The notes: generated by a model not told the origin, from the sequence alone. Positions 11,398 to 60,521 are shown, counted from the first letter of the stretch. The stretch is 64,000 nt of DNA from an uncultured Prevotella sp. (GCA_900539625.1 UQCW01000002.1:74455-138454); one strand, 5' to 3'. Translations and numbers: made by a program.

Positions 11398-11407
11398 AAT
11401 TGATAAT

Positions 11408-12213: not shown

Positions 12214-12239
12214 CATAGCGACTATTCAAACAATCAATT

Positions 12240-12734: not shown

Positions 12735-12819
12735 CTCATCACTCTTTTGTGCCAGAAGATGTGGATAATGGCACTACTAATCAATCCACAGCATTATTCA
12801 ATAATACAGATAAAACAAC

Positions 12820-13665: not shown

Positions 13666-13866
13666 TTTGCATAACCAGTTATAGTACGTTACCGTCTTGC
13701 TGTTATACCATTCCAACACTCTTATACCACACCGGGCTTGCCCAGTGTCCAAATAGAGGGAAGTAGAGGTAGCCTAATACCCCATGCATCTGTCGATGAT
13801 GGGAGGGGTGTCCTCTTAACGGCAAGCCGGGACAAAATACATGTACAAACAAAAAATATAAAAGGT

Positions 13867-15324: not shown

Positions 15325-15376
15325 TCGGCATGGTTTCCATTTCACTCCTTTTCTAATGACAAAATCAAATAAGAAC

Positions 15377-34580: not shown

Positions 34581-34658
34581 TTCCATGTGACTCAGATAGG
34601 TTTCAACTCGATTATGTGTTACTATCGAGGCGACATTTTCATACCATGCTTCCCATAA

Positions 34659-34727
34659 ATTGAAAATCTTGGGAATTTTATATTGAAAATCTTGGGAATT
34701 TTATATTGAAAATCTTGGGAATTTTGT
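34659..34727. repeat. 3 x 23-bp perfect tandem repeat ATTGAAAATCTTGGGAATTTTAT
   Basis: Three head-to-tail copies (the last has 1 mismatch) lie immediately upstream of the AAA-ATPase gene. Confidence 0.8.
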
Positions 34728-34761
34728 AATTTTGCAGAAGCAAAACGTAAATAGGCATTTT

Positions 34762-36027: not shown

Positions 36028-36037
36028 CATAAACCTC

Positions 36038-36082
36038 AAAGGCGGATGCCCAAGACTCTTCATCTTGCACATCCGCCTTTGC
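36038..36082. terminator. Bidirectional terminator hairpin
   Basis: CAAAGGCGGATG…CATCCGCCTTTG perfect stem between convergent genes. Confidence 0.65.
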
Positions 36083-36101
36083 CTATACTCATTCTATGAA
36101 G

Positions 36102-38756
36102 CTACTTCTTCACTCCGTATATCTCATAATCCTTCTTTCGTCTTTCTACTATCGGAGGATTCTTCCCGTCGTAGTACATATCATACCATGTTGATGATTC
36201 TTTTGGCTTCATACTATCACTCAGCACAAAATGTTTGCCGTCCAATGACCGTTGCTGTATGTAATAATGGTGTAGTCTATATGCCGTCTTGACAAATACT
36301 TCTCTTGATCCCAAGAAGCAAATGTCGTCATACATCCTTATTTCTGCTTTTCTGTAAGTTTCACCATTGTTTCTTCCACGTCTCATATACACTCCACCTA
36401 TCTTCAGGAAGTTCATGAAACCGATGGTGACAAATTCCGGCTTACGGGTAAAGCATGTCATATTCTCCAAATATACCCAGTATTCCTTGCCTTGCTCCGT
36501 GAAATGAAGCAGGGCGTTGTCCTGAAGCTCTGCAAACTCATACGTCTGTTCTGGCTTTTCCATTGTTTTGTACAGTTCAGTGCGTACAAGGTATTTGCCT
36601 TCTCTGTTCTGCACTATTCTTATACCGTATGCCTGTGGGTATATCTTAGCATAACTGCCTAATGACTCCCATTTATCCAGCCAATTTCTTCGATAATATA
36701 CTTGGTAATTGTTCTTCGTGACGCAGGTGACTCTCAGATTGGCAGGTTCTTTATAGTCAGCTAACTGTGTTCTGCATCCGATGTAATCTATTTTTATTTC
36801 TGGTCTGAAAAACCTTATATATTGTTTCTTTTCCTCTTCGAACTGCTTGACTTCTTCTTCCCATGTGTTTCTCTTTTCTACTAATTCTTCAGCTGTCATA
36901 GGATGCAACATGGTATCCCAAGCCTTGCGCCAAGCCAAACCTCCTTGCTCGTCTTCCCAAATCGACAGGTCTTCTATTTTCTCCTTGAATATGTATAGTC
37001 TGTCTGGCTCTGATGGCTGCACAAAGAAATTGCGGAACCGCAGCCCTTCGTCTGTCCCATTATTCAACGCATTCCGCAATACAAAACTGTTCTCGTCCAT
37101 CCGACGTGTCTTTACTCTCGGATAGAGGCGCAACCCGTCTGTAGTGGAAAACTCCATAAAGCCATGTTTCTCGATTCTCGGACGCTTGAAGTATCGCACA
37201 CCATTACGCAAGTCCATCCAGGGGCGTTCTCTGTCTATCTTCCGTCGAGAATACAGTTTGGTTATTCCGTATGCTTTCAGTTCTACCTTATTATATTCAC
37301 AAGGCAGTATTTCCTTGCCGTCCTTATCCACAACACCAGACAGACCTTCCTTGTTGCTGACTATCTCGTAGCCGTATGCTTCCTCCAAGTCCATACGTTG
37401 CCCCTCATGTGTCATCACGGTGATTAACTCTGTTCGTGCGTCCGAAGTGATTCTCTCTTGTTCGTTGCAAATGGAATAGGCTATGTTATACAGCCCTTCC
37501 ACTTCCTCTGTCAGAATGCCTTTACCAGCGACACGTCCCTCAAACATGGCTTGCCAGTCTCTGTCATCTGACGGGAGTCCAAACAAACGGTACAGCCCGA
37601 CATTGTCCAATATCAAGCAATACTTCTTACCCTCAAACACACGCATGCCACGTCCTACTTGCTGCAGGTACTTTGCCAACGACAGTGTGGGTCTTGCCAA
37701 CTGGATAAACTCTACATCGGGACAGTCAAAACCTTCACCAAACAAATCTACATTAACCAACACTTGTATGTTATTTGTTTGCGCCAATGGAGTATCAGTA
37801 TTATCCGTACTATCAGCCTTATTGCTAACATCTGTATCTAACGGCTTAGTAAGGCTCAAAGAGGCATAGTTAGGCTTACTATCAATGCTTGTTTCCTTAA
37901 ACCTTTCAATGATCTCCTTTCTTTCTTCAAGCGGTGTCTTGCTGCTTATCGCCACTGCATTTATGCCATGCTGTCTGTATGCTTCTGCTATATGCTCCGC
38001 ATGGGCTATGTCTATGGCATAAGTGATGCCTTTCTTGTTAGCTGCATATCTCATCACCGTATCGCAAAGCCTCTCGATACTTGGCTGCACATTCATTTTC
38101 TCACTCATCTCTCTCAGCGAGAAGTCTCCGTCGGCACCTCTTTTCTTCAGCGAGTTCACCATGCGCCAGTCCTCGCTGTCCTCTCTGATGGACATATAGT
38201 CATACAGAGATAGCCACCCATCGGCAATAAACTTCTTTGCTGACCACGACTGCAGTAGCACGTCAAACAAATCGGTGAACCCTCGTTTGGTCAGTCGGCA
38301 GGGCGTGGCTGTCAGTCCCAGTTTCTTTGCCTCAGGATAAGCATCCATCACCTCCTTGTAGGTTTTCGCCACGGCATGATGCGCCTCGTCGATAACTATC
38401 AATGATGGAATTTCCTCCATTTCTTGATAGTGTCTCGACAGCCATTGTATCGACATTACTTTTATGCGAGAATCATCCAATAAAAGGGAAAGAGCAGTGC
38501 CAGAAGTAGAGCAAGGACTGCTTAGCATGGTTTCAAGCGTTTCTCTTATCTGTTCTACCAATTCACGCCGATGTACCACAATCCACACCCATGTATTTTT
38601 CCCTTTTAACTTTTCACTTTTCACTACTTCTGCAAGAAGTATCGTTTTACCCGTACCTGTCGGCATCTGCACCATCACGGACTGACACGACCGAAAAGCC
38701 GCCTCAATCCGTTCACTCATGTCTCTTTGATAGTCGTATAGCTGAATATCCTTCAT
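36102..38756 (-). CDS. SF2 DEAD/DEAH-box helicase (ResIII-like) with large C-terminal repeat-containing domain
   Basis: Motif I MPTGTGKT; motif II VIDEAHH; motif VI-like QQVGRGMR. The C-terminal ~450 aa carry repeated (K/R)DG…(L/I)…(Y/F)… units. ATG at 38756 is preferred; 38828 would overlap the upstream gene. Confidence 0.65.
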   Translation of the reverse strand: MKDIQLYDYQRDMSERIEAAFRSCQSVMVQMPTGTGKTILLAEVVKSEKLKGKNTWVWIVVHRRELVEQIRETLETMLSSPCSTSGTALSLLLDDSRIKVMSIQWLSRHYQEMEEIPSLIVIDEAHHAVAKTYKEVMDAYPEAKKLGLTATPCRLTKRGFTDLFDVLLQSWSAKKFIADGWLSLYDYMSIREDSEDWRMVNSLKKRGADGDFSLREMSEKMNVQPSIERLCDTVMRYAANKKGITYAIDIAHAEHIAEAYRQHGINAVAISSKTPLEERKEIIERFKETSIDSKPNYASLSLTKPLDTDVSNKADSTDNTDTPLAQTNNIQVLVNVDLFGEGFDCPDVEFIQLARPTLSLAKYLQQVGRGMRVFEGKKYCLILDNVGLYRLFGLPSDDRDWQAMFEGRVAGKGILTEEVEGLYNIAYSICNEQERITSDARTELITVMTHEGQRMDLEEAYGYEIVSNKEGLSGVVDKDGKEILPCEYNKVELKAYGITKLYSRRKIDRERPWMDLRNGVRYFKRPRIEKHGFMEFSTTDGLRLYPRVKTRRMDENSFVLRNALNNGTDEGLRFRNFFVQPSEPDRLYIFKEKIEDLSIWEDEQGGLAWRKAWDTMLHPMTAEELVEKRNTWEEEVKQFEEEKKQYIRFFRPEIKIDYIGCRTQLADYKEPANLRVTCVTKNNYQVYYRRNWLDKWESLGSYAKIYPQAYGIRIVQNREGKYLVRTELYKTMEKPEQTYEFAELQDNALLHFTEQGKEYWVYLENMTCFTRKPEFVTIGFMNFLKIGGVYMRRGRNNGETYRKAEIRMYDDICFLGSREVFVKTAYRLHHYYIQQRSLDGKHFVLSDSMKPKESSTWYDMYYDGKNPPIVERRKKDYEIYGVKK

Positions 38757-38757
38757 A

Positions 38758-39663
38758 TCAACTTCGTCTCGGTAACCACATCGAGGGTATTTCTTTACGA
38801 GTCTTCGAGTTGGCATTAGTAATGTCAATCAGTATCAGATACCACTGTTCCTTTCTTCGGTGCTCTCCAGATATATAGTAGACTTTATTGGGTTGGTCTC
38901 TAAGTATCATATACAGGTCCAAGAACTGGAATATTCTGTCATTTGCCACGCATTCCCGATGATGCATCGGTATGCCTGCCATGTCTCTGTTTTTATAGAA
39001 ATAATAGTTATAGCCAACTCTCAGCACGTCCATGAATCCCATATGCTCTACAATCGGACGCTCATCAAACTCCTGCATGGTGTACAGATTTACCCACGTG
39101 GTTTTGTCTTCTCCTGCAAACACTACTTCTGCGATATTGTCATCTGAGAGTTTTACGCTCTTTAATCCTTCCAGAATGATATGGTGGTCATTGTTGCTGA
39201 TGGCATACTCGTTGCGCATGAAATGTTCACAGACGTATGCGTCCTTACTGTTGTATTCCTTTCCTCTGTTCTTGTTGATAGCATAATAGGCGTATGTCAC
39301 AAGGCATTCTTCTCCATTGATGGTTTTATAGATGCTGAAGTTCTCCTGCTTGCGCTTCTTACCTGTAATATATTCTCTTTCATCGGTTGTCACTTCCTGC
39401 ATCGAACCTTGCGCATTATCCATATAGAGATATTGCTCCTTGGTGCCTACTGTCAGTGGTGACCATGGGTCTTTTCGTCCTACGTATTCAATGGCTTCAT
39501 TTTTATTGTTCAGCAGGTAGTACTTTGTTATGTCACCTTCTGTCTGACTGACTAACTGCCAGTTAAAACGCATATCATCGTAGGTCTTATATATCCCATG
39601 CATATTGTCACCAATACGGATATAATTCCCATCCTTTATATAGCCAAATTTTGTTTTTCGCAT
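38758..39663 (-). CDS. Hypothetical protein related to the helicase C-terminal repeat region (WG-repeat-like)
   Basis: Shares blocks with the helicase tail (…HMGFMDVLRVGYNYYFYKNRD vs …FMNFLKIGGVYMRRGRNNG). ATG at 39663. Confidence 0.45.
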   Translation of the reverse strand: MRKTKFGYIKDGNYIRIGDNMHGIYKTYDDMRFNWQLVSQTEGDITKYYLLNNKNEAIEYVGRKDPWSPLTVGTKEQYLYMDNAQGSMQEVTTDEREYITGKKRKQENFSIYKTINGEECLVTYAYYAINKNRGKEYNSKDAYVCEHFMRNEYAISNNDHHIILEGLKSVKLSDDNIAEVVFAGEDKTTWVNLYTMQEFDERPIVEHMGFMDVLRVGYNYYFYKNRDMAGIPMHHRECVANDRIFQFLDLYMILRDQPNKVYYISGEHRRKEQWYLILIDITNANSKTRKEIPSMWLPRRS

Positions 39664-39723
39664 AATGTAATTAGATAATCGAAATAATCTTAAATGGCAG
39701 TTCCACAAATAATTATCTACGCA

Positions 39724-39993
39724 TTAAATCAAATTCATGCGCTTTATCTCAGCAATGTTTTCCTTGATAAATTCACTGACTTTCTTGCCGTTGTTTGGGT
39801 ATATCACGGTTATTCGGATGCTGTCATCCAATGCCCCATGCACCTCGTCCACCAATTTATTGAATGGGCTATCTTTACATATATCCGGTAACCATAATAT
39901 CACGTCTCCACACTTCACGGTTACATGATAGTCCTTTATCAGATAGTGTCCCACCAATTCCCTTATTTTCTTTTCTATTTCAACACTATTCAT
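39724..39993 (-). CDS. Small hypothetical protein
   Basis: 89-aa ORF in the operon. Confidence 0.35.
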   Translation of the reverse strand: MNSVEIEKKIRELVGHYLIKDYHVTVKCGDVILWLPDICKDSPFNKLVDEVHGALDDSIRITVIYPNNGKKVSEFIKENIAEIKRMNLI

Positions 39994-40037
39994 AATTTTT
40001 CATAGATATATTTGATTCATCCGACACCTACTGCCCA

Positions 40038-41297
40038 CTAAAAGGGCAAAGCCCCTCTCGGCACCCCATAATCCGTACAACTCTCCGTTCCCTCAATCTC
40101 TTTCCACGCCTCATGCAAATAAGCATTCACATCCTCTGGCAGTTTTCCTTCTTTCGCCAACTTCTCAAACTCCTCTGTCAAGTCTCTTATGGCATATTCT
40201 GGACTGTACATATCATCAAAATACTCCCAGTGCCTGTCTATCACAAAGTGTCTGCACATGGATTTCGTCAGTTGTAGGAACATCAATGCTGCCGCCTGGT
40301 ATTCTCCAACAGCAAGCAACTTCTCGATATTCTTGTTCTCTTCCAACATCAGCTGCCAGATGCTATAACAGTCCCAATCCACATTTCTTCTGTTGAAGAT
40401 ACGCTGTTCATAGTCCTTGTTCAGTGGTATCAACGACTTGGCTTCTTTCTCTACCTCCAGCATCTGTCGCTCTTTCTCCCGTCGCCTACGCTCTGCTTCT
40501 CTTGCAGCGCGTTCTTCTTCGTCATTCATCTCTCGCTCGATCTTCACGGGCTCTCCCGTGAATTTCTTACTTGGTGCCAACATCTGTATATTGTTCTGCA
40601 CTCGTTTGAAATCATCAAACCGTGACAGATGCGTAAAGATATAGGTGAAGACCTCTTCTCGCTTCTCCTCGTTGTTCCATGCTGCCACACTGTCCACCAA
40701 TGCTGCAAAGCTCGCATATATCAGTTTGCCGATACGTAGTTTGTATTCATTTAGATAATCTCTAATGTCATCCCTATATATCAGCAACGGCAGATGTTCG
40801 CACAGTCCCATAGCAATGGCATACGCTGCGTCTGGTCGTCCTTTTGCCAACACTGCTGGTATCGACTTCTTCTCCCAACGCTCCAACAGTCGTAGCATAT
40901 ACATGAAGTCGTCTTTGTCATCAGGGAAGAAGGTCACCACTTGCTGAAAGTACTTGGCATATGCTTCCTCCAGGTCTATATACAATCCTTTGGGTATATA
41001 ATCTATCTTCGGACGTTCCATACAGCTTCTCCTTCTGCGCACCTCGGCTGCTTCATCCTGCTTTTTCTGATGGGCAAGTTGTTCTTCCTTGTCTCTACGA
41101 ACCGTCTCCAACTCTTCTTGAAACTCTGCTGCCTGCATGGTCTCCGCACATAGCAGCTTGTCTATCTTCTTTGACAGGTATCTGCTCCATGCCTGATAAT
41201 TACTTTCATCCACGCAATCGGGGCAGGATATACCACTCATGCTCCATGTATTTTCAGACAGGTAGAAAATCATGCTGTATCTTTTCTTTTTGCTCAT
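40038..41297 (-). CDS. Hypothetical protein with central coiled-coil/charged segment
   Basis: 419 aa with a central stretch of RREKERQMLEVEKEAK-type charged repeats. Confidence 0.45.
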   Translation of the reverse strand: MSKKKRYSMIFYLSENTWSMSGISCPDCVDESNYQAWSRYLSKKIDKLLCAETMQAAEFQEELETVRRDKEEQLAHQKKQDEAAEVRRRRSCMERPKIDYIPKGLYIDLEEAYAKYFQQVVTFFPDDKDDFMYMLRLLERWEKKSIPAVLAKGRPDAAYAIAMGLCEHLPLLIYRDDIRDYLNEYKLRIGKLIYASFAALVDSVAAWNNEEKREEVFTYIFTHLSRFDDFKRVQNNIQMLAPSKKFTGEPVKIEREMNDEEERAAREAERRRREKERQMLEVEKEAKSLIPLNKDYEQRIFNRRNVDWDCYSIWQLMLEENKNIEKLLAVGEYQAAALMFLQLTKSMCRHFVIDRHWEYFDDMYSPEYAIRDLTEEFEKLAKEGKLPEDVNAYLHEAWKEIEGTESCTDYGVPRGALPF

Positions 41298-41399
41298 ATT
41301 CTAAGTTTTTATAACGAATATGGGGTGATAGATTTTTCTTAGTGATTTGACATAAACCATAAAAACCGATTGTTGGCACAGTTTGCAAGTCCAAACGGT

Positions 41400-41610
41400 T
41401 TATCTCTGTTTATTGCCAGTTTGTTTTTCCGAGTGGCGTGTGCGCCACTACTGATGTGGGGCGGACTTTCCGTCGAGAGTTTACTCTCGTAAGGGAAGTG
41501 CGAACCACAGCAGTAAGCCGAAGGCTCGGAAAAACAGACTGGTGTTTTTACTCCGTTTTTGTTAAAGCCCACCCAGCAGCTGTTTTTGTTTAAACCCACT
41601 CAGCAGTAGG
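41400..41610. ncRNA. Candidate structured non-coding RNA (unknown family)
   Basis: 270-bp ORF-free gap. It has a 10-bp closing stem TTTTTCCGAG…CTCGGAAAAA (41424-41534) enclosing GTGGCG-TGTG-CGCCAC and CGAGAG-TTTA-CTCTCG hairpins. Duplicated CCCAC(C/T)CAGCAG motifs lie downstream. Confidence 0.25.
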
Positions 41611-41612
41611 TT

Positions 41613-42473
41613 TTATCGGTTTTTGTTTTTATCCATCTCCACCAAATAGTCGTACCCAAACACAAACGTGTCCCTCTTTGCATCCCCATACAGAAAATCC
41701 TCAAAACTGGTGAATGAAGACTGAAACATCTGCCCATACAGCATATCAATCGTGTTAATATGCCAAACCATAGCATTACTATATCGCTGCTCTGTACGCT
41801 TGTCTTTCATAACAAGTGTCAGAATATAACATACAGCCTCCAATAGAAACTCATAATACGAGCAATGACTCTCTCTGTCTGGCTCAAAGTAATCCACATC
41901 TTTACAGTGTAGCCTTGCAAGTCGTTCAAGAAGATAAAAAGCATTTCCTGCCGCCTCCTCATTCTTGCCTTCTTCATATTGCTTCATAAAGACTTCAAGC
42001 AATGGAATATATGCCATAGCTGCCTTTTTACCATCATTCCACGTGCTCGGTTCTATCCAAACCTTGTCAATTTCTTCACGCATGGTTGGAGTGAACCCTA
42101 TAAAACTATAGTTCTTCCATGACTTCACCGTGCGCATAGCTGCAGGATACTTGTTCGGATGATTATACTTAATGTCTTGCAGCATATGTCCAAGTGTCTC
42201 TGCCATACACTTGGCATGCATATACCGTTCTTCATCTGTCTCACTGGCAGCATAGTCGCAACAGTCTGTGTACCATTCTTCATGCGGAAGGTCACTCTCC
42301 ACTACATATTTACGGCTATCAATAGCTTCTGACCAATAGGTCAAGTAGCGGATTAGCACGCCATGAGGCAATGCCTTCAGCTCTTCTACGACTTTCTGTA
42401 TTTTCTTGTCTACAACCAAATCGTAATAATCGCCTTCGGCGTTGTAGACGAAATCGAATGGTTCGTTATACAT
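41613..42473 (-). CDS. Hypothetical protein (downstream partner of SIR2 gene)
   Basis: 286-aa ORF, 29 bp after the SIR2-like gene. Cys/His-containing, no known motif. Confidence 0.45.
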   Translation of the reverse strand: MYNEPFDFVYNAEGDYYDLVVDKKIQKVVEELKALPHGVLIRYLTYWSEAIDSRKYVVESDLPHEEWYTDCCDYAASETDEERYMHAKCMAETLGHMLQDIKYNHPNKYPAAMRTVKSWKNYSFIGFTPTMREEIDKVWIEPSTWNDGKKAAMAYIPLLEVFMKQYEEGKNEEAAGNAFYLLERLARLHCKDVDYFEPDRESHCSYYEFLLEAVCYILTLVMKDKRTEQRYSNAMVWHINTIDMLYGQMFQSSFTSFEDFLYGDAKRDTFVFGYDYLVEMDKNKNR

Positions 42474-42502
42474 ATTCCCTTATTGTTTATTACATTCATT
42501 AA

Positions 42503-44278
42503 TCAACCAGGAATCCTGTTCTCACTGTAATACTTTTGTGCATTATCATATAACCTTTTGTATTTTTGATAATCACTTCCAAACATCCCATGTTTCAAAG
42601 GTTTCCAATTGTCCTGTACTTTTTCTGCCTCTTCAAAAAATCGCCAATATGAATTTTTTCTTAATTCTTGATAACGATAATAAGATGCAGCTCTAACAAA
42701 ATCGCCTGTTGGGAAATACTCACGACCTTCCCAACAACATCCATGTGCAACATAACTCAACGACAAGATTTGTTCCCAGATGTAAAAATAGTTTTCGAAT
42801 TCACTTTCCGCATAAAAAACATTCTTAAAGAATGGCTTTAAAGTATCCTTAAAGAAAATACTCCTTGGATAGTAATAATTCTGCTGCAAAAGTGCATTCC
42901 ACAAGTCTTTGTCCCAGTGAGTCATTCCTACAATGGATAGGAATTTTTCTGGATGTACACTTACAAAATTAAATGGTGGCACCTCCAATGACAAAATATC
43001 TTCCAACTCTTTAAATCTTTCGTATTTTACACATGCAACACCTATTGCATAGAATAGTATTTCTACAGCTAATGCATGGATATAAGATGTATTTTGGGTT
43101 TCTGTTCGACCATTTTCTAATGGACGAAGACAAAGTTTTATTAGAATATCTTTGAATATGGCTATATGCTCGGATTTTCCCCATCTTGCTGCAAGAGTAA
43201 AAGCATCAATCAATGGAGCTACCGCTTCTTTATGTATTTCTGCATATTGCTGAAATGACGTAACGGATAACGTAAAGTTGTAATAGGCATACTCTTGTAT
43301 AGTGTTATAAGCCTTCCGACCTAATGTCTCTATAAGGTCTGCATATTCAATGGAGTAATTGTCTGATGATAGAAATTTCTTTATTTTAGCAATGAACAAG
43401 TCATGACTCATGGTACGTGACACATTGACTTTTTCTAATGCTTGTACTTGCTCCAATAGAGAGGTGAACATTTCATCTGCACCTAAAATCCTTAGAAGTT
43501 CGCCATCTCGTGATTCAGATAAGTTCTGTAGTTCTTCGCTAAATTTCCCAACTTCCGCAAAGAATGATGTGTAACGAGGTCGTTGGCTTTCTGTGATAAT
43601 CTCGATGAGTCCTTTATCCCATTTGGCAGACCATCCACAGGTCACCAGTCCAAAATCCGAGAAAATCCCATGAAGATGTCCTTTCAATATCTGTGGATAA
43701 TCATCAAGTTCTTTTGTTGTGTTCCTAAACTGACAATCAAGATAGTCACCATTTACTTTTATGATTGTTGGCTCTTTGCTATGGATAATCGGTGTCGCCG
43801 TGTTCCAATCACTTTCGTTCTTAATAACTTGTGGGTGTACTCCAATCTCCTCTAAAGCATTCTCTAACAGCCTATCAAAATTCGTTGTTACCACAACTTT
43901 TACATATCCTTCTCTAATCAGATTAGCAATCGCTCTATGTGCTTTTGTAGGCAATTTCCATCCCAACTCTTTTTCATCTGTTGTTGGTTCGAAGAAATTC
44001 TGCATTAGCCGCACACGCTCTGTCGGAGTTTTCACCATTTCTTCTAATAAATCAGAATAATTGGCTTGCTTTCCATATTGTTTAAGATACCATTGATGCC
44101 AATCGTTCGTTTCTGATACGTTTTGCGTCGCAGCTATTTGCTCTATAAGTCGCTCCTCGACCTCCCATCCTGTTGGTATATGCGCTTTTCTTGATATTCC
44201 AGAACCAAGCAATAGGGCATATGCTCCTTTATTGCTATATATGGACAATGCCAATGTTGTTAGTTTCTCAATTTTCAT
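42503..44278 (-). CDS. SIR2-like (defense-type sirtuin, SIR2_2) domain protein
   Basis: N-terminus ALLLGSGISRKAHIPTGWEV… and VVTTNFDRLLE match the GxG…TTN(Y/F)D signature of defense-associated SIR2 domains. The C-terminal ~300 aa are unknown. Confidence 0.65.
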   Translation of the reverse strand: MKIEKLTTLALSIYSNKGAYALLLGSGISRKAHIPTGWEVEERLIEQIAATQNVSETNDWHQWYLKQYGKQANYSDLLEEMVKTPTERVRLMQNFFEPTTDEKELGWKLPTKAHRAIANLIREGYVKVVVTTNFDRLLENALEEIGVHPQVIKNESDWNTATPIIHSKEPTIIKVNGDYLDCQFRNTTKELDDYPQILKGHLHGIFSDFGLVTCGWSAKWDKGLIEIITESQRPRYTSFFAEVGKFSEELQNLSESRDGELLRILGADEMFTSLLEQVQALEKVNVSRTMSHDLFIAKIKKFLSSDNYSIEYADLIETLGRKAYNTIQEYAYYNFTLSVTSFQQYAEIHKEAVAPLIDAFTLAARWGKSEHIAIFKDILIKLCLRPLENGRTETQNTSYIHALAVEILFYAIGVACVKYERFKELEDILSLEVPPFNFVSVHPEKFLSIVGMTHWDKDLWNALLQQNYYYPRSIFFKDTLKPFFKNVFYAESEFENYFYIWEQILSLSYVAHGCCWEGREYFPTGDFVRAASYYRYQELRKNSYWRFFEEAEKVQDNWKPLKHGMFGSDYQKYKRLYDNAQKYYSENRIPG

Positions 44279-46166
44279 AGTATGATTTCTTATGTATACT
44301 AGAATCTTTGATTACGTATGTCCCATTTTCGACTAGAATGTGATATACGACTCTTGAAGCAATTACATCAAGGTTTGAGAATAACTTTTCTAAAGTGCAT
44401 TTCTCAAATGGTGTCCCTTTTCGTAGCTCTCTCATATTTGTTTCAGAATGATGCAATGCGAAAGCCAATAAAACATCTCTAAGCTGATAATGAAAAGAAA
44501 ATGACATACCATCAGCATTATTTGTAAAATGAACATAATCGGCAAAATTATCAATATGTACATTAATAGCAAAAGAACACTTGAAATATTTTATTGTGTT
44601 AGTTGTGTCATTCGCTTCAATATTCATACTTACAGTTATCAGTTCTTTATCTTCAATTATTTCAAATGTAGGTCCTGTTATTTGCATCGTAATATCACGC
44701 AAGTCCCTGTCGTTTATTGAACCATAATAAAGCGATTCAAAATGAATCTTTTCCATTTTTACAACAGATAAATACTCAGGTTTAAACTCAGGCATTACAA
44801 CATCTTTGAGCTCTGATTTCTTAGTCAGACATTCGCTGAATATATCATCACTCTTTGGTTGTATCACTACATCATCCGCTATAGGATTCACAATCCAGTC
44901 TATCCATGGAGTTGACAAATCCCTGTTAGTTGTGTCTTGCCGCTGCCATTTGTCAAATCCCATCCATTGTTTTATTTTTTCCCAATGGTCGCTTAAGTCG
45001 CTATCATATTTGTATGCACCATTGTCAATGTCCACGAATGGAATGATAAAAACATAGGCTATATCGTAAATCCAAATAATGCCAGTACAATATGGTGCTT
45101 TTAAATCTTCTTGGCGGTTGTTTATGAAAACATCCAATACTGGTTGTTTGAATGGTATATAGTTTTTGTCGGCATCTGTTAGCACAACCAACCATATTGA
45201 GGGCAATGTGTCAGGTATAAAGTCTTTGGACTTAATCCACTTGATTGTGTTTTGAAAATGCGACAACTCCCTTGTAGGTAACATATCTATTACCATTTTG
45301 CACAAGGCTTTGTACATTTGCTCATTGACAATCGGTGATTTCAGTTCAAAATGATGTGCAAATGGCTTTTGGTCACTTACGCTCAGTGGTATTGCCTCCT
45401 TCATCAGATGCAGTATTGGATCTCCGTTTTTATCTGGGACAATGATGAAATCTTTTCCGACAACCTTGGCAGCCTTGGTTGTTCCTTTCCTTGGTATGCG
45501 AAAGATGGAACGACGGAAATCCATCATAACTCTAAACTGATCTTCTACTACAGCTAAGTCATGATTGCAAGTATCGCACTCTTCATAACAGAAAAGTAGC
45601 TTGTTGCCCAATGCATCCTGTATAGCATGGGCTACTTTCTTAAACGATACATCTGGTACTGACTTGCCGCAAAACCTACACACTCGCTTTTTTTCATCTG
45701 CTTCGCCAATCCATTCTTCTAATCCGTCAAAACCATATGAATGGTATTCGAATAGCAGATTCATGATGCAGAAATGCTCAAAGATATTGTTATGGAGCAT
45801 TACTGAGAACTTATTTGTCATATTTTCAATAGTTAAACAGGCTATAGCTGTTCTCCGTTCTGCTACAGAAGTTTTCTCTTCATTAAAGTAATAGAAATAC
45901 TCACCCATAGACAAGTTTCTTACAAATCCGAGCAGTTTCCTAATATGAAACCCTGTAGCATGATCATACTTTGCTTGTAGAACTTGCAAAGCATCAATCG
46001 TCTTGTCACTGACATTGATTCTTGCTCCTGTATGACGCAAAGACAAGACATCACAATGGTTCATAAACGTTTGTTCTATTTCAGTCGTCATCACGCTGTC
46101 ATTGTCTGAAAATAGTATTCTTTGTTTCTTAGACTTAGAATATAATAACATTCTGAGTTCCGTCAT
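44268..46166 (-). CDS. HNH-motif nuclease-like protein
   Basis: CRFCGK…AHAIQDALGNKLLFCYEECDTCNHD fits the zinc-knuckle + H…N…LL.C..CN.H HNH pattern. The N- and C-terminal regions are unknown. Overlaps the SIR2 gene by 11 bp. Confidence 0.5.
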   Translation of the reverse strand: MTELRMLLYSKSKKQRILFSDNDSVMTTEIEQTFMNHCDVLSLRHTGARINVSDKTIDALQVLQAKYDHATGFHIRKLLGFVRNLSMGEYFYYFNEEKTSVAERRTAIACLTIENMTNKFSVMLHNNIFEHFCIMNLLFEYHSYGFDGLEEWIGEADEKKRVCRFCGKSVPDVSFKKVAHAIQDALGNKLLFCYEECDTCNHDLAVVEDQFRVMMDFRRSIFRIPRKGTTKAAKVVGKDFIIVPDKNGDPILHLMKEAIPLSVSDQKPFAHHFELKSPIVNEQMYKALCKMVIDMLPTRELSHFQNTIKWIKSKDFIPDTLPSIWLVVLTDADKNYIPFKQPVLDVFINNRQEDLKAPYCTGIIWIYDIAYVFIIPFVDIDNGAYKYDSDLSDHWEKIKQWMGFDKWQRQDTTNRDLSTPWIDWIVNPIADDVVIQPKSDDIFSECLTKKSELKDVVMPEFKPEYLSVVKMEKIHFESLYYGSINDRDLRDITMQITGPTFEIIEDKELITVSMNIEANDTTNTIKYFKCSFAINVHIDNFADYVHFTNNADGMSFSFHYQLRDVLLAFALHHSETNMRELRKGTPFEKCTLEKLFSNLDVIASRVVYHILVENGTYVIKDSSIHKKSYYEN

Positions 46167-46275
46167 AAGCTATTAAATGATTTACATTAAATCTACCATT
46201 CTATAAACATTATTCATAATTAATGTTTGAAGGCTACATGTGTCTTTTTTGTAAAACCATAAGGTTCGATAGAAT

Positions 46276-47670
46276 CTATTTTGACACATATTTTAGCATA
46301 CATTCTATTATCGCCGCAAAGTCCGTTTCATTCTCTCTTCCTGATGATTCGAATAATCCTCCTATTTCCCCTTTTCCTGTTTTTTCATCAATAACAACAT
46401 CTTGGCGGTAATATATCCCATCTTGACCTTTGGAGAAAACGGAAACACCCAATCTTTGGCATTCTTCAAATGACAATAACATATAGGGAGCAAAATAAGT
46501 AAAGAAATCTTTCGGACTTTTCTGATAAACATTTCGAGCTATATTTTTCATACTGTCATCTGTCCATCCCAACCGTCTCATAACAGACAAAACTCTAAGC
46601 ATTACTGTACACAACACTATCGTATGCCCATTATAATCAACCGTTATACTGTCTTGTTTCTTTTCTTCTGTTATAATCACATGTACAACATCACGGATTG
46701 TTTTACTGTAAAAGTAGTCTTTTCCTATAAGGTCTCGTAATAGAGGAACAGGACATTCTGTAATAACGGCTAATTGTTCAAATATGTATTTTGTACGTTC
46801 CTCTTGAAGCGAGTAGTTGAATGGTATGCTTGACAGGAACTTGCCAATATATCCGCTGAAGTCTGTTTCTCTACCATAGAAATGTTTGAATATTTTTCTC
46901 ACATTTGAATAATCACATACAAGAACTATATTATCAAGATTGAATTTGTTACCAACAAGTGTGCAATCAGGCTTTACGAAACACTTGTAACAATAGTCAA
47001 TATGAGCAGAAAACACATTGAGTATTCTAAATAGATGTGCAGGATCTATCCTATCCAAATCTTCTACGACAAGAACAACTTCTTTATGGGTACGTTGCTT
47101 GTAATTTCCAATTGACCTCTTAATAATAGCTGTTATAATGTCATCCTCATAAATGGTTTTGTTGTCAACCTTACTAAGAAAGTCGTCTAAGAGGGCATTT
47201 TCGTCATAATTCACTTTGAACTTTTCAAATTTGACTTTCATGTCCTTAAACAGTTTCAATGACTTCATACAACTCATTATTAACGGCTTGTATTCATTGG
47301 GAACCGCAATGGCAGACAAGTAAGAAAGCAAATCTGAAAGTAAAGACTTACCATTGTTTTGGAGATAAAACCATAAGGCTATATCGTTAGGAACAACGAC
47401 TTGGTCACTTATCATACTATTCAACATCAACTGAAACAATATGTCCCGTTTGATTAGACTGAATATGTCCTCATTTGATGCGACTTGATAGTTGACTGGG
47501 TATATGGTAAGAAACATGAAGTGTTCACTGACAAAATCTGTCTTTTTATATTTGTCCAAGAAATAGGATTTTCCGTCACCAAACTTTGATGAAAGTATCG
47601 TTCTTGGATTTACCTTCATATGCTCAAAGAACCCTTTTATTGCACTGTCTATTGGTATGACAAAATCCAT
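46276..47670 (-). CDS. KAP-family-like P-loop NTPase
   Basis: Walker A KFGDGKSYFL and the KAP-characteristic Walker B VLVVEDLDRIDP. Confidence 0.55.
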   Translation of the reverse strand: MDFVIPIDSAIKGFFEHMKVNPRTILSSKFGDGKSYFLDKYKKTDFVSEHFMFLTIYPVNYQVASNEDIFSLIKRDILFQLMLNSMISDQVVVPNDIALWFYLQNNGKSLLSDLLSYLSAIAVPNEYKPLIMSCMKSLKLFKDMKVKFEKFKVNYDENALLDDFLSKVDNKTIYEDDIITAIIKRSIGNYKQRTHKEVVLVVEDLDRIDPAHLFRILNVFSAHIDYCYKCFVKPDCTLVGNKFNLDNIVLVCDYSNVRKIFKHFYGRETDFSGYIGKFLSSIPFNYSLQEERTKYIFEQLAVITECPVPLLRDLIGKDYFYSKTIRDVVHVIITEEKKQDSITVDYNGHTIVLCTVMLRVLSVMRRLGWTDDSMKNIARNVYQKSPKDFFTYFAPYMLLSFEECQRLGVSVFSKGQDGIYYRQDVVIDEKTGKGEIGGLFESSGRENETDFAAIIECMLKYVSK

Positions 47671-47901
47671 TTACTCCTCTATTTTTGATTTCACAAATGA
47701 ATAAGACTCAGCAACCTCTTCTCGTTGCCAATAACTTGAAATATCAGAAAGACTATTTCCGCAACTGCTGCTCGATATTCTCTGATTTAAGAAGTTCACA
47801 TAAACACGCCCATTGTCATTTTCCACAAAGGCAATGGAATCAGTATTTATGTATACCGGATTTCCGTTATGTTTGATGTGTAATTCTATAAAGTGTGCCA
47901 T
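47671..47901 (-). CDS. Small hypothetical protein (76 aa)
   Basis: Its start is 17 bp after the stop of the 1034-aa gene, and its stop abuts the KAP-like gene start. Confidence 0.35.
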   Translation of the reverse strand: MAHFIELHIKHNGNPVYINTDSIAFVENDNGRVYVNFLNQRISSSSCGNSLSDISSYWQREEVAESYSFVKSKIEE

Positions 47902-47917
47902 ATAACAATGCTTCTTA

Positions 47918-50900
47918 TCATTTACCTAAATTGCGCTTCGCAATAGCCACTTCTGGTGTGTCCAACAATTTCATTCCTGTAATAGAACCATATTCAGCTA
48001 ACTTGTCATGCGACAATTCGTGATTATAGACATAGTTACGAACGCGAGCATTTATTAATCTGAGAATTACAGGATTATTCTTATAGGTTTTCACCATTGC
48101 TCTCAAATCATTGGCTCTCATAGTTCCATAATATGTATTAATAGTGAAAGAGATGATGGCAGCAGCTGGAGTACCGATTTTTTCAGCTACCTTTTCATAG
48201 ATTTCTGGCATTCCTGTTCCGCCAGTTCCTACCGATAAAGATAATCTTGCAAATGAAAACAGGCAGAATTTCATCAAAACCATTTGAAGCAAACGATTTA
48301 GACGTTCTTGGATTTTCTTTTCATTTGTTCCCTTTATCAAGTTCGGATTCTTTGTTATCTCCTCAACAAAAGATTTCCTGTCATCTTCGATTATCTTGGT
48401 AATAAAAGATAATGAGCGGAATGTCGCGTAATATGCATCTTCAATCAACCCCATCAATTCGTCCTTTCGGAGCGTGTCACGTTGATTCTTTACGATTTGC
48501 CCCATTATTTGTGTCACAAATAGTGAGTTCCTGAAATCTATCAGATCTTGATTTTGCTCATATTCTTCATTGTCTGGCAGTGCTTCAGCAGAACTTGCCT
48601 TTCGTATCGCCATGTCTTCCTTATCATGGGCGGCCAAACGTTTGTATCTTTCCTTCCTGTAATCTACACCCTCTCTCAAGACATCTTCTTTAAAGGAATT
48701 AACCAAGTCAGCCAAACGACTATATAATTTATCATCTGTATTAAGAGTAATAGGGTCCAATTTCTCGAAAGGCAACCAACTGATAAATTTTATTTCTGTA
48801 AGGAGTGTGTCACTATTGTCCAAATAAGCAAGGAATAATAATATGTTGGCATTGTTTTCTTTATGCAGTGAATTGCAGAGTTCTTTTACTTCCCTTTCAC
48901 CTTCTTCCGTGTTAATGATTCGAGACAACTTTAATGCAGTTAGATAGAAAAACAAATATTTATATGAGAATTGGTAAACTTTATCCTCTTGTTCCTTAAT
49001 AATAGCGGATTCTTTCAACTTGGCTAAGAATGTTTCTTTAGTCGCAACAACATTTCTTTCTTTAGAGTATTCTGCATAAAAGTCATTATAGTTTACAGCA
49101 TCTTTTATGTCACATTCTGCAAACGAACTTACTTTCTTCTTGTACATTTCGTAAGACAATTCCGACAAGAACATACTATATCCATCTAATTTACCTTGTT
49201 GAACCCCAGATCTAATAAGAGATGCAAACAATAGACTTTGATATAATGCAGCGTATGAAGTTGGCGAGACATCAAAAGTATTAACACCTGTGTCGATATT
49301 TTGCAACAGCGTAAGCAAGAATATTGGATTTGACGGCAACAACTGTTTGCCTAATATGTTTGCGACTTGATCATAAGCTGTTTTTACTGCTTCTGCCAAC
49401 TTGTTATTGTCAACGGTATATATATCAGAGCCTAACATTATCCATCTTTCTATCAACAGATTACGCTTTACATATCCAAGAGAATGTACAGAATAATATA
49501 TCACATCCATATTGTCAGCAGTAGACAAGAATCCCCTAATATCTATATTCTCTGATGTAGTAATTATAACCTTGTCATAAACTTTCAATAATGATGAGAT
49601 AAGTTCCTTCATTCCCGATTTATTGAGAGAAGACTTATCCATATTATCTATAAAGACAATTCGTTTTGACCTTTCAATGGTATAATACTCTTGAAATTTC
49701 TTTTTGGATTTGTCATATTGATTGTCATACGCTCTGTTCAATAAATGCTTGATGTTGACCTTCGTGATATCTTTTCCATGAAGCAATATTGGATAGATTG
49801 AGCGATGATAGCATTGAGATATGAGCATCTTTAGCAATGCTGTTTTCCCACACTGGCTTTCTCCTTCCAAGATTATCACTTTCGTCGCTTCGTTATACGA
49901 AAAAATTTCCTTTGAGTCTATATATGTATAAACCCTGTCATCATCTACGTTTCCATTCAATGGTTCCAAATCAGGATATACATATATATCATCCAATAAC
50001 AGAGGGTCTTTACGTGGATGCTTAATTGGAGCATCCAAGCTATGAAGATATGTATAAAATTGCTCTGTAAAGTCAAAAGAATGACCATGATAAGTAATCG
50101 GAACATTCTTTTCTGCAATAGGTAGGCAAACATCTTTCTTTGCGTCAATAGAAATTGTATATAATACAGCATTTGTTAAATCCGTATCATCAAATACAAG
50201 AACAGAAAAGGATTGTTCTTCACCCTGTTGCAAAGAATCATTCTCTAAATATAAAATTGCAGCTCTATTGTCCAAATCCGAAATTTGCTTTCCACGATGT
50301 TGATGTTCGTGACCACACATCAATATTTGCGATTGCTTTTGAATGTGCTCACTAAATAAATGGTTGTTATTTTTCGTTCCGCGTGTTGCTAACCAACCTG
50401 TCTTGTGGTGAAAAACGGATATGACAATATCATTTCTTCCATTGTCATCATTGTACGTTATGAAATTTGCTTCTGGAACAATTAGGCTTTGTGGTTGTTC
50501 ATTTATGGTGGACAATAAAGCTGTATTATAGCAATGAAATATCAGAGAACTGTTATTGTTGATTTTTATTTGTTTCTCGTAAGAAATTCGATTCAGGTGT
50601 TCTTCTTCACTTAATTCAGCATAAAATTTCCAAAACTCATATTGAGGTTTCAGGGCCTCGCTTTCATATTCATTACGTTTAAAAGCTCCATTATCCAAGA
50701 CATCTTTTAGTACGAAGTCACGAAAAGGCACATCCATTCCAAAATCCAAGTCGTGATTACCTGGAACAAAAACGTACTCCCAAGAGTCAAACTTTCTCTC
50801 CTTTTCAATTTCATTCTTGAAATCTTGAAACATTTTCTTCGCAAATTGGTAGTTTGCGACATTCCCTTTATCAACGATGTCTCCAGTGACAACGACTGCC

Positions 50901-51022
50901 ACTTTTGAACACTCATTTAGAATAGAAGCAGTGGCACGTGCAAGATTTCTTGATTTTTCCACAATATAGTCTGTTCCCGATGTTATGTGAAGATCAGACA
51001 TTTGAATAACTGCTAATTTCAT
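47918..51022 (-). CDS. Calcineurin-like metallophosphoesterase – STAND-type P-loop NTPase fusion protein
   Basis: The N-terminal 290 aa carry the full metallophosphoesterase motif set: SDLHI, VVTGDIVDKG, GNHD, FHHK, CGHEHQH. These are followed by Walker A GESQCGKTALL and Walker B RIVFIDNMD, then ~550 aa of helical C-terminal region. Confidence 0.65.
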   Translation of the reverse strand: MKLAVIQMSDLHITSGTDYIVEKSRNLARATASILNECSKVAVVVTGDIVDKGNVANYQFAKKMFQDFKNEIEKERKFDSWEYVFVPGNHDLDFGMDVPFRDFVLKDVLDNGAFKRNEYESEALKPQYEFWKFYAELSEEEHLNRISYEKQIKINNNSSLIFHCYNTALLSTINEQPQSLIVPEANFITYNDDNGRNDIVISVFHHKTGWLATRGTKNNNHLFSEHIQKQSQILMCGHEHQHRGKQISDLDNRAAILYLENDSLQQGEEQSFSVLVFDDTDLTNAVLYTISIDAKKDVCLPIAEKNVPITYHGHSFDFTEQFYTYLHSLDAPIKHPRKDPLLLDDIYVYPDLEPLNGNVDDDRVYTYIDSKEIFSYNEATKVIILEGESQCGKTALLKMLISQCYHRSIYPILLHGKDITKVNIKHLLNRAYDNQYDKSKKKFQEYYTIERSKRIVFIDNMDKSSLNKSGMKELISSLLKVYDKVIITTSENIDIRGFLSTADNMDVIYYSVHSLGYVKRNLLIERWIMLGSDIYTVDNNKLAEAVKTAYDQVANILGKQLLPSNPIFLLTLLQNIDTGVNTFDVSPTSYAALYQSLLFASLIRSGVQQGKLDGYSMFLSELSYEMYKKKVSSFAECDIKDAVNYNDFYAEYSKERNVVATKETFLAKLKESAIIKEQEDKVYQFSYKYLFFYLTALKLSRIINTEEGEREVKELCNSLHKENNANILLFLAYLDNSDTLLTEIKFISWLPFEKLDPITLNTDDKLYSRLADLVNSFKEDVLREGVDYRKERYKRLAAHDKEDMAIRKASSAEALPDNEEYEQNQDLIDFRNSLFVTQIMGQIVKNQRDTLRKDELMGLIEDAYYATFRSLSFITKIIEDDRKSFVEEITKNPNLIKGTNEKKIQERLNRLLQMVLMKFCLFSFARLSLSVGTGGTGMPEIYEKVAEKIGTPAAAIISFTINTYYGTMRANDLRAMVKTYKNNPVILRLINARVRNYVYNHELSHDKLAEYGSITGMKLLDTPEVAIAKRNLGK

Positions 51023-51044
51023 ACGTTACAATTATTTCTTGATA

Positions 51045-51491
51045 CTATCCTTTATACGCCCCATCCTTTGCTTCAAATATCACACTCGGCTCTATCACTT
51101 CCACCGTGTGCCATGCCCCTTTTGGTATCTGACATCCATACTTTGCCTCCGCTGGGCAAAGATGAATGCGTTGCACCTCACGATACTCTACTTTCCGTAT
51201 TACATCCTGCGTATCTATACCCATAGGCAGGGCTTCAGATGCAGCATTCTCGTATGTCACTACCTCCTCATATATAATTTCATCCATTTTTCCACACAAG
51301 CAAACAACTGTTTCTGTCGTGTTCTCATGCCTGTGGATAGGCACAACCGTACCAGGAAGTAATGCATTTAAGATACGCTGACTATTATCAGCCGAAGATG
51401 TACGCAAATCAAAACTCTGACGTAATCTTGGGTTTATTGTGGCTTGCTCAAAGAGCTTACCTAAAAAGTCTTTATCAAATTCCATAGTCAT
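51045..51491 (-). CDS. wbuC: WbuC-family cupin-fold protein
   Basis: 148 aa with a cupin His cluster (…VVPIHRHENTTE…); terminal gene of the polysaccharide locus. Confidence 0.55.
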   Translation of the reverse strand: MTMEFDKDFLGKLFEQATINPRLRQSFDLRTSSADNSQRILNALLPGTVVPIHRHENTTETVVCLCGKMDEIIYEEVVTYENAASEALPMGIDTQDVIRKVEYREVQRIHLCPAEAKYGCQIPKGAWHTVEVIEPSVIFEAKDGAYKG

Positions 51492-51570
51492 TAATCATTT
51501 GGTAGGTGATGTGCCTTTCTTGGCACGAACAAATATTTGCAGAATTGCCAAACAGCATATAGTAATCTTC

Positions 51571-52209
51571 TCATCGTTCTGTGACAATAACCTTGAATGT
51601 CTCGAAGATTAGCTTTACATCATACCAGAACGAGCTATTCTTCACATACTCCAAGTACAGCTTTATCTTCTCCTGCATAATCACATGGATATAGTAATCC
51701 TCAGGATCCTCAGCCTTTTCCATCAGTTCGTTCTCGTTGCGGAACTTGATGCTGGCAGGGTCGGTGATTCCTGGACGAACATCCAATACGTGCATCTGTT
51801 CGAGTGTCCAGTAATTCACATAGTGACGCACTTCAGGACGAGGACCAACCAAACTCATATCTCCAATAAACACGTTTATAAGCTGGGGGAGTTCATCAAA
51901 CTTATATTTACGGATATAATATCCCGAACGGGTCACACGAGGATCACGACCACCAATGGTTACTAAAGAACCCTTATCTGCTCCTACACGCATAGATCGG
52001 AATTTGAATATTCTGAAATCCTTATTTCCACGTCCCACACGCACTTGTCTATAAAACACGGGACCTTTAGAATCAAATTTGATCCAAATAGCCAATATTA
52101 TAAACAATGGGCTTAAAACTATTAATCCACAACCAGATGCAACTATGTCAAATAATCTTTTCATACTTTTAGGGTAAGAAAAACCTGAAGATAAAGATAT
52201 TGTCTTCAT
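51571..52209 (-). CDS. Initiating sugar-1-phosphate transferase (bacterial sugar transferase family, PglC/WbaP C-terminal type)
   Basis: One N-terminal TM helix, then …FYRQVRVGRGNKDFRIFKFRSM…DELPQLINVFIGDMSLVGPRP, the conserved PF02397 core. Confidence 0.8.
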   Translation of the reverse strand: MKTISLSSGFSYPKSMKRLFDIVASGCGLIVLSPLFIILAIWIKFDSKGPVFYRQVRVGRGNKDFRIFKFRSMRVGADKGSLVTIGGRDPRVTRSGYYIRKYKFDELPQLINVFIGDMSLVGPRPEVRHYVNYWTLEQMHVLDVRPGITDPASIKFRNENELMEKAEDPEDYYIHVIMQEKIKLYLEYVKNSSFWYDVKLIFETFKVIVTER

Positions 52210-52233
52210 CTCCAGGCCTTTGATAATTAATGA

Positions 52234-55846: not shown

Positions 55847-55849
55847 ATA

Positions 55850-57040: not shown

Positions 57041-57067
57041 TATAATGGTTTTATTTTTTTTATTCCA

Positions 57068-58207: not shown

Positions 58208-58486
58208 TATAAATCCTCTAAAGTAATATCAGGAGCATAAGTTGTTTCTATTTTATTTCCATACAACAAGAAGCCATCAATATGTGCGAATTCTTTTAGA
58301 TCAAACTCGGCATCACCCCAAAACTGATTGGCCCATTATTGTGTATGTTCTTTGGTTATCGGATTCCGTTATCATTACGATAATCCTTTATGGTTTCATC
58401 GATGTCTTCTATTAAGCTCTTCATTTTATAACTTTATTATGTTTGCATGCAATTAAGGGCTTAACAGAGAGACTTATATCTGAATG

Positions 58487-59278: not shown

Positions 59279-59287
59279 ATATTGTTT

Positions 59288-60505: not shown

Positions 60506-60521
60506 ATATTATAATATTTTT

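Follow-up and report, generated by a model that had tools for sequence, protein, structure and literature searches.

The window analysed here is a stretch of 64,000 nt from an uncultured Prevotella sp. (GCA_900539625.1, UQCW01000002.1:74455-138454), in which a 15-kb array of genes follows, on the same strand, the last gene of a capsular polysaccharide locus, encoding a WbuC-like cupin. The original prediction held that 22 bp and no recognisable terminator separate the two, and that the array is either read through from the capsule operon and placed under capsule phase variation, or lodged in an insertion hotspot at the 3' end of the capsule locus. With moderate confidence, the array is interpreted below as a two-layer anti-phage island that occupies, behind the last capsule gene of a Prevotella/Segatella-type gut bacterium, a slot whose content is exchanged by recombination. 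Features are collected in Table 1.

Gene content of the array

The WbuC-like open reading frame (ORF; 51045-51491, minus strand) ends with TAG at 51047-51045, and the next ORF (47918-51022, minus strand) starts with ATG at 51022, as predicted. The absence of a recognisable terminator was likewise confirmed: no hairpin was found at the junction, where the fold of 50985-51105 was no better than shuffles (z = 0.36), and a consensus scan for terminators gave no match there. Sigma-70-type promoter and terminator scans stayed at shuffle level; such consensus sequences are unsuited to Bacteroidota. From the junction down to 36102 only minus-strand genes were found, running without interruption as had been claimed, with gaps, in order from WbuC, of 22, 16, 0, 109, -11, 29, 315, 44, 60 and 1 nt. 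An apparent gap of 247 nt is occupied by the gene for p76, which is called in the identical metagenome contigs L001-L003. An 86-aa ORF with a GTG start (41339-41599) was discarded as probably spurious because it overlaps the structured repeat described below and is uncalled in metagenome contigs. The guanine-plus-cytosine (GC) content is ~0.35 across 42.5-51 kb vs ~0.44 across 36-42.5 kb. The array is closed, right after its last stop codon, by a long-stem hairpin that is the strongest on the minus-strand transcript over the 28 kb from 36 to 64 kb. Long-stem terminators halt antitermination-proficient polymerase in other systems (PMC10325885), and the array-end hairpin may be likened to them.

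The low-GC part is a variable cassette of 8.6 kb that holds a DS-8-like gene, p76, p464, an HNH gene and a SIR2 gene. The DS-8-like protein scored 746.9 bits against NF053861 over profile positions 1-988 of 994; the curated cut-off is 790 bits, and the protein is a close relative just under the equivalog threshold. It also matched PADLOC PDC-S60 (4e-47), Pfam Metallophos (9e-11) and AAA, NACHT and nSTAND families, and its metallophosphatase motifs (SDLH, GDIVD, GNHD, GHEHQH) and Walker A P-loop (GESQCGKT) are intact. DS-8 is a validated single-gene anti-phage system (DefensePredictor) in which phosphatase and NACHT residues are both required (PMC13092281). The window protein is like DS-8 in its near full-length profile match and intact motifs, and differs in its sub-cut-off score, its Bacteroidota host and its position as first gene of a cassette rather than a stand-alone gene; by family match it is predicted to be a candidate anti-phage gene. 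Residues 1-587 of the SIR2-domain protein align with positions 12-589 of the 592 of the PADLOC candidate model PDC-S65, a full-length match. No match to p464 was found in Pfam, NCBIfam or PDB (the PDB sequence search returned noise), and p76 is conserved in L059, L060 and L064.

The distal genes, which make up a conserved module, ended in few family assignments. Profile searches gave no family match for p76, p464, p286, p419 or p89, nor for p301 (the 316-aa ORF, p316), for which a PDB sequence search returned noise. An AlphaFold2 (AF2) model of p419 was built from 26 sequences (predicted local distance difference test, pLDDT, 68.7; all-alpha) and had no Foldseek match in PDB below E 0.1; phmmer against PDB gave no match. 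The superfamily 2 (SF2) helicase has relatives in RadD and in the helicase cores of restriction enzymes of types I and IV, SauUSI (7clg) among them. Assignment as a SauUSI-type enzyme, in which an N-terminal PLD nuclease is joined to the helicase and a target-recognition domain, was not made: the match to structure 7clg is confined to the helicase core, the mREase_IV match covers only profile positions 217-503, and no Pfam PLD (phospholipase D) match was found. Nor was the pair assigned to Hachiman, since p301/p316 matched neither DUF1837 nor any other family and HamB was matched weakly (2e-6, N-terminal part).

The spacer between p286 and p419 contains a structured repeat that folds into a three-way junction, with compensatory changes in 19 of 38 pairs among four copies. 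A covariance model found it only beside p419 (before, after, or on both sides), with copies at 8751-8888 and 10322-10459 of L079, at 10303-10441 of L083 and at the ends of L081 and L082; short metagenome contigs break within it. It had no Rfam match, and an E-value-mode scan gave just a spurious microRNA match. Conceivable identities for the repeat are a terminator, an RNA regulator and a small mobile element.

Table 1. Features of the array and of the adjoining capsule genes (window coordinates).
Feature	Coordinates	Strand	Support or remark
Long-stem hairpin closing the array, shared with the convergent AAA_14/DUF4143 gene	36036-36085	.	-33.3 kcal/mol; inverted repeat I9
SF2 helicase, 884-908 aa, restriction-enzyme type	36102-38756	-	ResIII 6e-29; PADLOC mREase_IV 7e-30
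p301 (p316), helicase-associated	38758-39663	-	fused to the helicase core in L040, L041 and L019
p89	39724-39993	-	conserved in L079, L080 and L002
p419, abundant conserved all-alpha protein	40038-41297	-	961 clusters
Structured repeat, 138 nt, p286-p419 spacer	41410-41548	-	-62.8 kcal/mol, z -7.9
p286, first distal-module gene, right slot anchor	41613-42473	-	homology starts at the ATG
SIR2-domain protein, 591 aa, last variable-cassette gene	42503-44278	-	PADLOC PDC-S65 2e-184; Pfam SIR2_2
HNH_5 nuclease-domain protein, 632 aa	44268-46166	-	Pfam HNH_5 2.7e-6; 11-nt overlap with the SIR2 gene
p464, 464 aa	46276-47670	-	accompanies the cassette in other loci
p76, 76 aa	47671-47901	-	0 nt to p464
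DS-8-like metallophosphatase-NACHT/STAND protein, 1034 aa	47918-51022	-	NCBIfam NF053861 DS8_antiphage 3e-224
22-nt spacer TATCAAGAAATAATTGTAACGT	51023-51044	-	the same in L059 and L060, where the preceding WbuC alleles have 93% and 68% aa identity
WbuC-like cupin, DUF6016, full length, last capsule gene, left slot anchor	51045-51491	-	Pfam 1e-82
Initiating sugar-phosphate transferase Bac_transf	51571-52209	-	Pfam 1e-60
Terminator-like hairpin and U-tract, after the DegT stop (52234) and before the likely Bac_transf ATG (52164)	52176-52225	-	-23.5 kcal/mol
DegT-type aminotransferase, first gene of the conserved 3' module, GC 0.42	52234-53523	-	Pfam 1e-87
Capsule body: NTP_transf_5, GT2, F420-type Fe-S protein, pyruvyl transferase, GT2, GT1, Wzy, GT1, flippase	53757-64000	-	Pfam

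Variable cassettes behind WbuC and their probable exchange

A comparison of syntenic loci, recommended by the original prediction, strongly supported the hotspot that it had offered as its alternative: WbuC and p286 are retained as flanks and the content between them differs (L079/L080, L083, L059, L039). Loci L079 and L080 share window positions 42476-40017, 40024-36029 and 34588-31313 at 88-98% nucleotide identity, whereas the five genes that they have between WbuC (14-nt gap) and p286 (DUF6602, 193 aa, 539 aa, 132 aa and DUF2971) are unrelated to those of the window. The same framework in L083/L084 has an FRG-domain gene after WbuC, and L039 contains a third filling. In three contexts (L079, L039 and L059) the p286 ATG is the point at which similarity sets in, with unrelated sequence ahead of it. 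In L059 the WbuC-to-p286 stretch is 98.8% identical to the window at the nucleotide level, against 88% on the DegT side and 81% on the helicase side. L060 has the same cassette behind a WbuC allele of 68% aa identity, and its alignment with the window at the nucleotide level starts at 51179, within WbuC, which places a recombination breakpoint there. The same 22-nt spacer thus stands behind three different WbuC alleles (window, L059 and L060). A decayed copy was found at 9940-10070 of L064, where a deletion joins the frameshifted 3' end of WbuC to residue 221 of the DS-8-like protein and the phosphatase domain is lost. None of the more distant DS-8 homologues (60-78% identity) was found next to WbuC, with just 198 and 160 nt of upstream sequence to judge from in L061 and L062. 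Differing, defence-enriched content between the same flanks (window, L079/L080, L059, L039 and L083) is the mark of a defence-island hotspot, and the WbuC-to-p286 stretch is very probably such a cassette slot. No tRNA and no Rfam family were found in the window, and a search for att-like direct repeats and invertible segments within 2.4-52 kb returned short chance-level matches only.

In the favoured reading, the distal module (p286, p419, p89, p301 and the helicase; 36.1-42.5 kb) would be the first layer, a conserved right-hand anchor of the slot, and the variable cassette (42.5-51.0 kb) would be the second, swapped by homologous recombination through WbuC on the left and p286 on the right. 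Homologues of the distal module also follow WbuC in other loci. The helicase is found 118 nt past WbuC in L010 and L019, and p419 after WbuC in L012 (12 nt), L009, L018, L039 and L041; L011 and L040 likewise have homologues from the set of helicase, p301/p316, p419 and p286 immediately past WbuC-like genes.

A wider census was made with the WbuC of the window as query and covered ~41 WbuC loci with usable downstream sequence in species-representative genomes. In ~16 of these, from Prevotella and Bacteroides, defence-type or island genes come next, including RADAR, Qat, KAP, PLD, HNH and FRG (L010-13, L018, L019, L025, L039-41, L055, L056 and L057). WbuC is followed by an unknown set and an AAA_15/21 protein in L013; by a P-loop protein, a leucine-rich repeat (LRR) protein, a KAP NTPase and QatC (2e-87) in L018; by a PLD-SNF2 helicase in L019; by FRG/PDC-S15 in L041; by KAP in L055; by HNH at 10 nt in L056; and by PLD at 11 nt with AAA_15 in L057. 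In L025 (Bacteroides congonensis; 11169-16469, same strand) a RADAR-like pair follows (RdrA 3e-29 and a 788-aa adenosine deaminase). The remaining loci continue with core genes (PurL, glycosidases, transporters, SusC/D), Amidase_3 or further capsule genes. Every one of the 16 defence-type or island neighbours has the orientation of WbuC, vs 4 of 11 others (Fisher p = 4e-4). They represent 12 distinct first-gene families, and seven are separated from WbuC by 10-30 nt.

With this tight, co-oriented arrangement recurring in other loci, the adjacency of WbuC and the island exceeds chance, as judged from the loci compared. An adjacency without functional or evolutionary meaning could arise at a single locus, and nothing specific speaks for it here; given the same cassette in four WbuC backgrounds and other defence genes at more than 12 further loci, it was regarded as extremely improbable.

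The region at ~3-36 kb, which resembles a conjugative or mobilisable element, suggests a different origin, by which the array would be the terminal cargo of this element, which would have inserted at the WbuC 3' end and brought along the last ~130 nt of that gene. A block of helicase, AAA_14/DUF4143, M23, DUF4099 and 547-aa genes is syntenic in the window, L079/80 and L083/84; the nucleotide identity of L060 starting inside WbuC is also consistent with such cargo, as is the fall in GC from 0.53-0.55 (TonB receptor and ManC, 1-3 kb) to ~0.4 at 3 kb. This origin is nevertheless improbable because the helicase homologues of L010 and L011 lie between WbuC and core genes (PPDK, efflux pump), without element genes, and because the cassette turns over while the element-side flank keeps 88-98% identity. 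In addition, a repeat search of the window gave no second, directly repeated copy of the WbuC 3' end, and the junction is without an integrase. The island matched no plasmid in PLSDB, and the element region gave no more than a 72% match over 1.8 kb.

Possible transcription into the slot and the capsule-locus head

The genes upstream belong to a genuine capsule locus, as predicted: a one-strand array with glycosyltransferases, flippase, polymerase and initiating transferase is present by Pfam matches, and it runs on past the window end at 64000. DegT is 89-97% identical among related loci. The true start of Bac_transf is probably 52164 (197 aa, as called in L002). The Bacteroidetes -7 motif TAnnTTTG was found 25-50 nt upstream of four leader genes in the window (ManC, the resolvase, the 10288 gene and the DUF4099 gene). 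By motif scan it is absent from the minus strand at 49281-51896 and from the intergenic gaps of the island, and all minus-strand matches from 36 to 64 kb lie within coding sequence, at background frequency. Stand-alone DS-8 homologues have -7 boxes of their own just upstream of the ATG (TACCTTTG in L063 and TAAATTTG in L061). Because homology starts at the p286 ATG in three contexts, there is no conserved promoter before the distal module. The cassettes would be promoterless at the 5' end and always operon-oriented; the first defence gene would therefore most likely be a continuation of the Bac_transf-WbuC transcript and would inherit, at least partly, the ON/OFF state of an invertible promoter at the head of the locus.

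The head was approached through contig L004, which is 99.97% identical to the window and reaches 7.5 kb past it, through FnlA/B/C-type genes to a 262-aa SAM_5 gene upstream of them and, upstream of that gene, the last 24 codons of another. Relatives of the 262-aa protein are numerous and form a family in which length is constant. Homologous heads have, in order, a tyrosine integrase, a gap of 430-470 nt, a gene for 228, 366 or 387 aa, the 262-aa gene and capsule genes. In the gap, perfect inverted repeats (13, 20 or 21 nt) flank 153-162 nt containing TACCTTTG; those of L068 and L075 are of 20-21 nt and bound promoter segments of ~190 nt at 4896-5090 and 6602-6798, respectively. Direct evidence of promoter inversion in the capsule-locus family is provided by L070 (4486-4673) and L072 (4489-4676), aligned from different samples, in which the segment has opposite orientations (97% identity in reverse). 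The head of L004 is 98.5-98.8% identical to those of L074 and L076, and an invertible promoter may for that reason be expected in the window locus too, at ~72.8-73.0 kb in window coordinates, ahead of the 387-aa gene. The original prediction had proposed a look beyond 64000 for such a promoter and for UpxY/UpxZ. The promoter was found, in both orientations, in homologous heads, while the contigs of the locus itself end short of it; UpxY and UpxZ were not found as such, the head being composed of the integrase, the promoter flanked by inverted repeats, the 387-aa gene and the 262-aa SAM_5 gene. Motifs resembling NGN and KOW in the sequence of the 387-aa protein make it a possible NusG-like protein. 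Aligned by hhalign with an approximate RfaH sequence it gave E 0.099. No Pfam domain is on record for it, phmmer against PDB gave no match, and its AF2 model (pLDDT 41) was too poor for a fold search.

The terminator-like hairpin between DegT and Bac_transf speaks against simple read-through. Hairpins with a T-run at the same position, of different sequence, were found in L013, L017, L019, L021, L022 and L064. Between the window hairpin and the Bac_transf ATG there are only ~15-25 nt. A TAnnTTTG in the 3' end of DegT (52329-52336) was rejected as an internal promoter: it arises incidentally from the NMFV codons and is not conserved, being absent where the protein reads HMFE. Given so little room and no conserved motif in DegT, Bac_transf and WbuC must be read through the hairpin, which more probably attenuates transcription than ends it. 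A perfect 16-bp hairpin (-26.8 kcal/mol) was also noted farther upstream, at 58756-58805, within the GT2 coding sequence 58487-59278.

Several points weigh against a capsule-driven defence island. Transcripts that start at the capsule promoter might be terminated or attenuated by the hairpin at 52176-52225, which is conserved in position and lies 1.1 kb upstream of the junction. Two cassette genes contain full -33/-7 matches, HNH at 44543-44573 and SIR2 at 42964-42995, from which the genes that follow may be transcribed internally. Termination or a restart could also occur at the gaps of 109 and 315 nt or at the structured element of -62.8 kcal/mol (41.4-41.5 kb). The missing perfect TAnnTTTG is compatible with weaker promoters, and a 37-kb transcript would be long. 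The invertible promoter was seen in homologous heads, and its presence in the window locus is accordingly an expectation; none of the 16 contigs of the locus extends further than 106 nt upstream of the 262-aa gene. The census sample is defined by similarity to the window WbuC, with some neighbours classified from sequence features alone, and a defence role of p76, p464, p286, p419, p89 and p301 is putative.

These points can be joined into an account in which the slot is a hotspot and nothing more: WbuC and p286/p419/helicase would serve as homology arms, the genes would be expressed from non-consensus or intragenic promoters of their own, independently of the capsule, and tight spacing would be a matter of packing. 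Besides the hairpin ahead of Bac_transf, the intragenic promoter matches and the two wide gaps, it is favoured by L009, where a clear terminator past WbuC precedes a p419 homologue, and by the usually constitutive expression of defence genes. It has to contend with a 22-nt spacer that holds neither room nor motif for a promoter, with the lack of a motif in WbuC, with the homology start at the p286 ATG, which leaves no conserved distal-module promoter, and with stand-alone DS-8 homologues that do have -7 boxes. Strict co-orientation over 12 independent first-gene families is, moreover, not demanded by pure recombination. This account was judged possible and rather unlikely.

The proposed read-through thus held in part. 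Lack of a motif or hairpin at the junction, constancy of the spacer, the homology start at p286, the -7 boxes of homologues and strict co-orientation are all consistent with it, and co-transcription of the first defence gene with WbuC is quite probable. Homologous heads do have an invertible promoter, though the head of the window locus lies beyond its contigs. The upstream hairpin counts against read-through, and that the whole 15 kb follows capsule phase variation is doubtful.

Neighbouring features and relation to known systems

Further features were recorded in and around the window. The element-like region (~3000-36000) encodes Abi_2, YpsA-SLOG, a resolvase, a Mob_Pre relaxase, Toprim, DUF4099 and several M23 peptidases, as well as two ArdC-type proteins, one fused to MutS domain I; L079 and L083 share the gene order of its helicase-side part. 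Immediately ahead of the AAA_14/DUF4143 ATPase gene, at 34656-34728, a 23-nt repeat, TATATTGAAAATCTTGGGAATTT, occurs three times in tandem and is iteron-like or operator-like. At 4206-4552 there is an intergenic tandem duplication of ~195 nt (80-86% identity), each copy near a TACCTTTG motif. In L061 (199-12256), past the DS-8 homologue of 78% identity, there are duplicated IS66-type genes and, farther on, polysaccharide genes (flippase, Glf, GT2) on the same strand. In L083/L084 (1340-7589) PIN_12 and a 1151-aa YobI-type ATPase stand directly upstream of Glycos_transf_4-WbuC; defence-type genes can therefore precede the initiating-transferase/WbuC pair too. Within the capsule loci of L070-L073, just past the 262-aa gene, a nucleotidyltransferase/HepT-like (MNT-HEPN) pair and AbiH fragments were found (6915-7569 and ~10990-11200). 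Source-database names of the proteins searched were just 'hypothetical protein [Prevotella sp.]'.

Capsule phase variation is the best-documented phage-escape route of gut Bacteroidales, and intracellular defences are usually treated as separate and constitutive. We tentatively propose that phase-variable capsule tails of Prevotella and Bacteroides are docking slots for promoterless defence cassettes; every capsule ON state would then switch on a particular set of intracellular anti-phage systems, and surface variation and internal immunity would change in step within a clonal population. If this were true, clonal subpopulations would differ simultaneously in receptor display and intracellular immunity, the burden of many defence systems would be spread across cells, and exchange of capsule loci and of defence genes would be evolutionarily linked. 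Whether or not co-transcription occurs, the slot from WbuC to p286 would be a practical site for mining new defence genes of Prevotella/Segatella, a very abundant and poorly studied gut group; candidates are p76/p464, the HNH-SIR2 pair, the DUF6602...DUF2971 set and the 791/644/341-aa set.

Capsule phase variation as phage escape is well known from Bacteroides (for example 10.1101/521070). Phase-variable capsule operons of Bacteroides have an invertible promoter, the NusG-like antiterminator UpxY, and UpxZ (PMC11685472). The locus described here is similarly a long one-strand operon, with homologous heads in which a tyrosine recombinase lies beside a two-orientation promoter flanked by inverted repeats; it differs in its first genes (387 aa and 262-aa SAM_5, with no recognisable UpxY or UpxZ) and in its defence-gene tails, which in the literature searched are outside the described model. 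No description of exchangeable defence cassettes or islands that form the tail of a phase-variable Bacteroidales capsule operon emerged from the literature searches.

Defence islands at conserved chromosomal hotspots are well known. Conserved flanks, unrelated cassettes in the same slot of related strains, mosaic identity and a shift in GC are shared with them; here, however, the left flank is the last capsule gene, the cassettes appear promoterless at the 5' end and strictly operon-co-oriented, and integrase or mobile-element genes are absent inside the slot. Integron-like arrays also have co-oriented, tightly packed, exchangeable genes without a promoter region of their own upstream, but in the present array there is no IntI, no integrase in 36-51 kb and no attC-type site, the repeated structured element stands only beside p419, and exchange apparently proceeds by homologous recombination in flanking genes.

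The closest precedent for joint expression is an AbiEi/AbiEii toxin-antitoxin pair reported to be co-transcribed with group 2 capsule genes of E. coli (PMC12488582). In that case a defence module is both physically linked to capsule genes and expressed with them; at the WbuC junction the linkage is observed and shared expression is predicted. The E. coli module is a single conserved toxin-antitoxin pair of Enterobacteria, without phase variation, whereas the window has a multi-system exchangeable cassette in a locus family whose heads carry invertible promoters.

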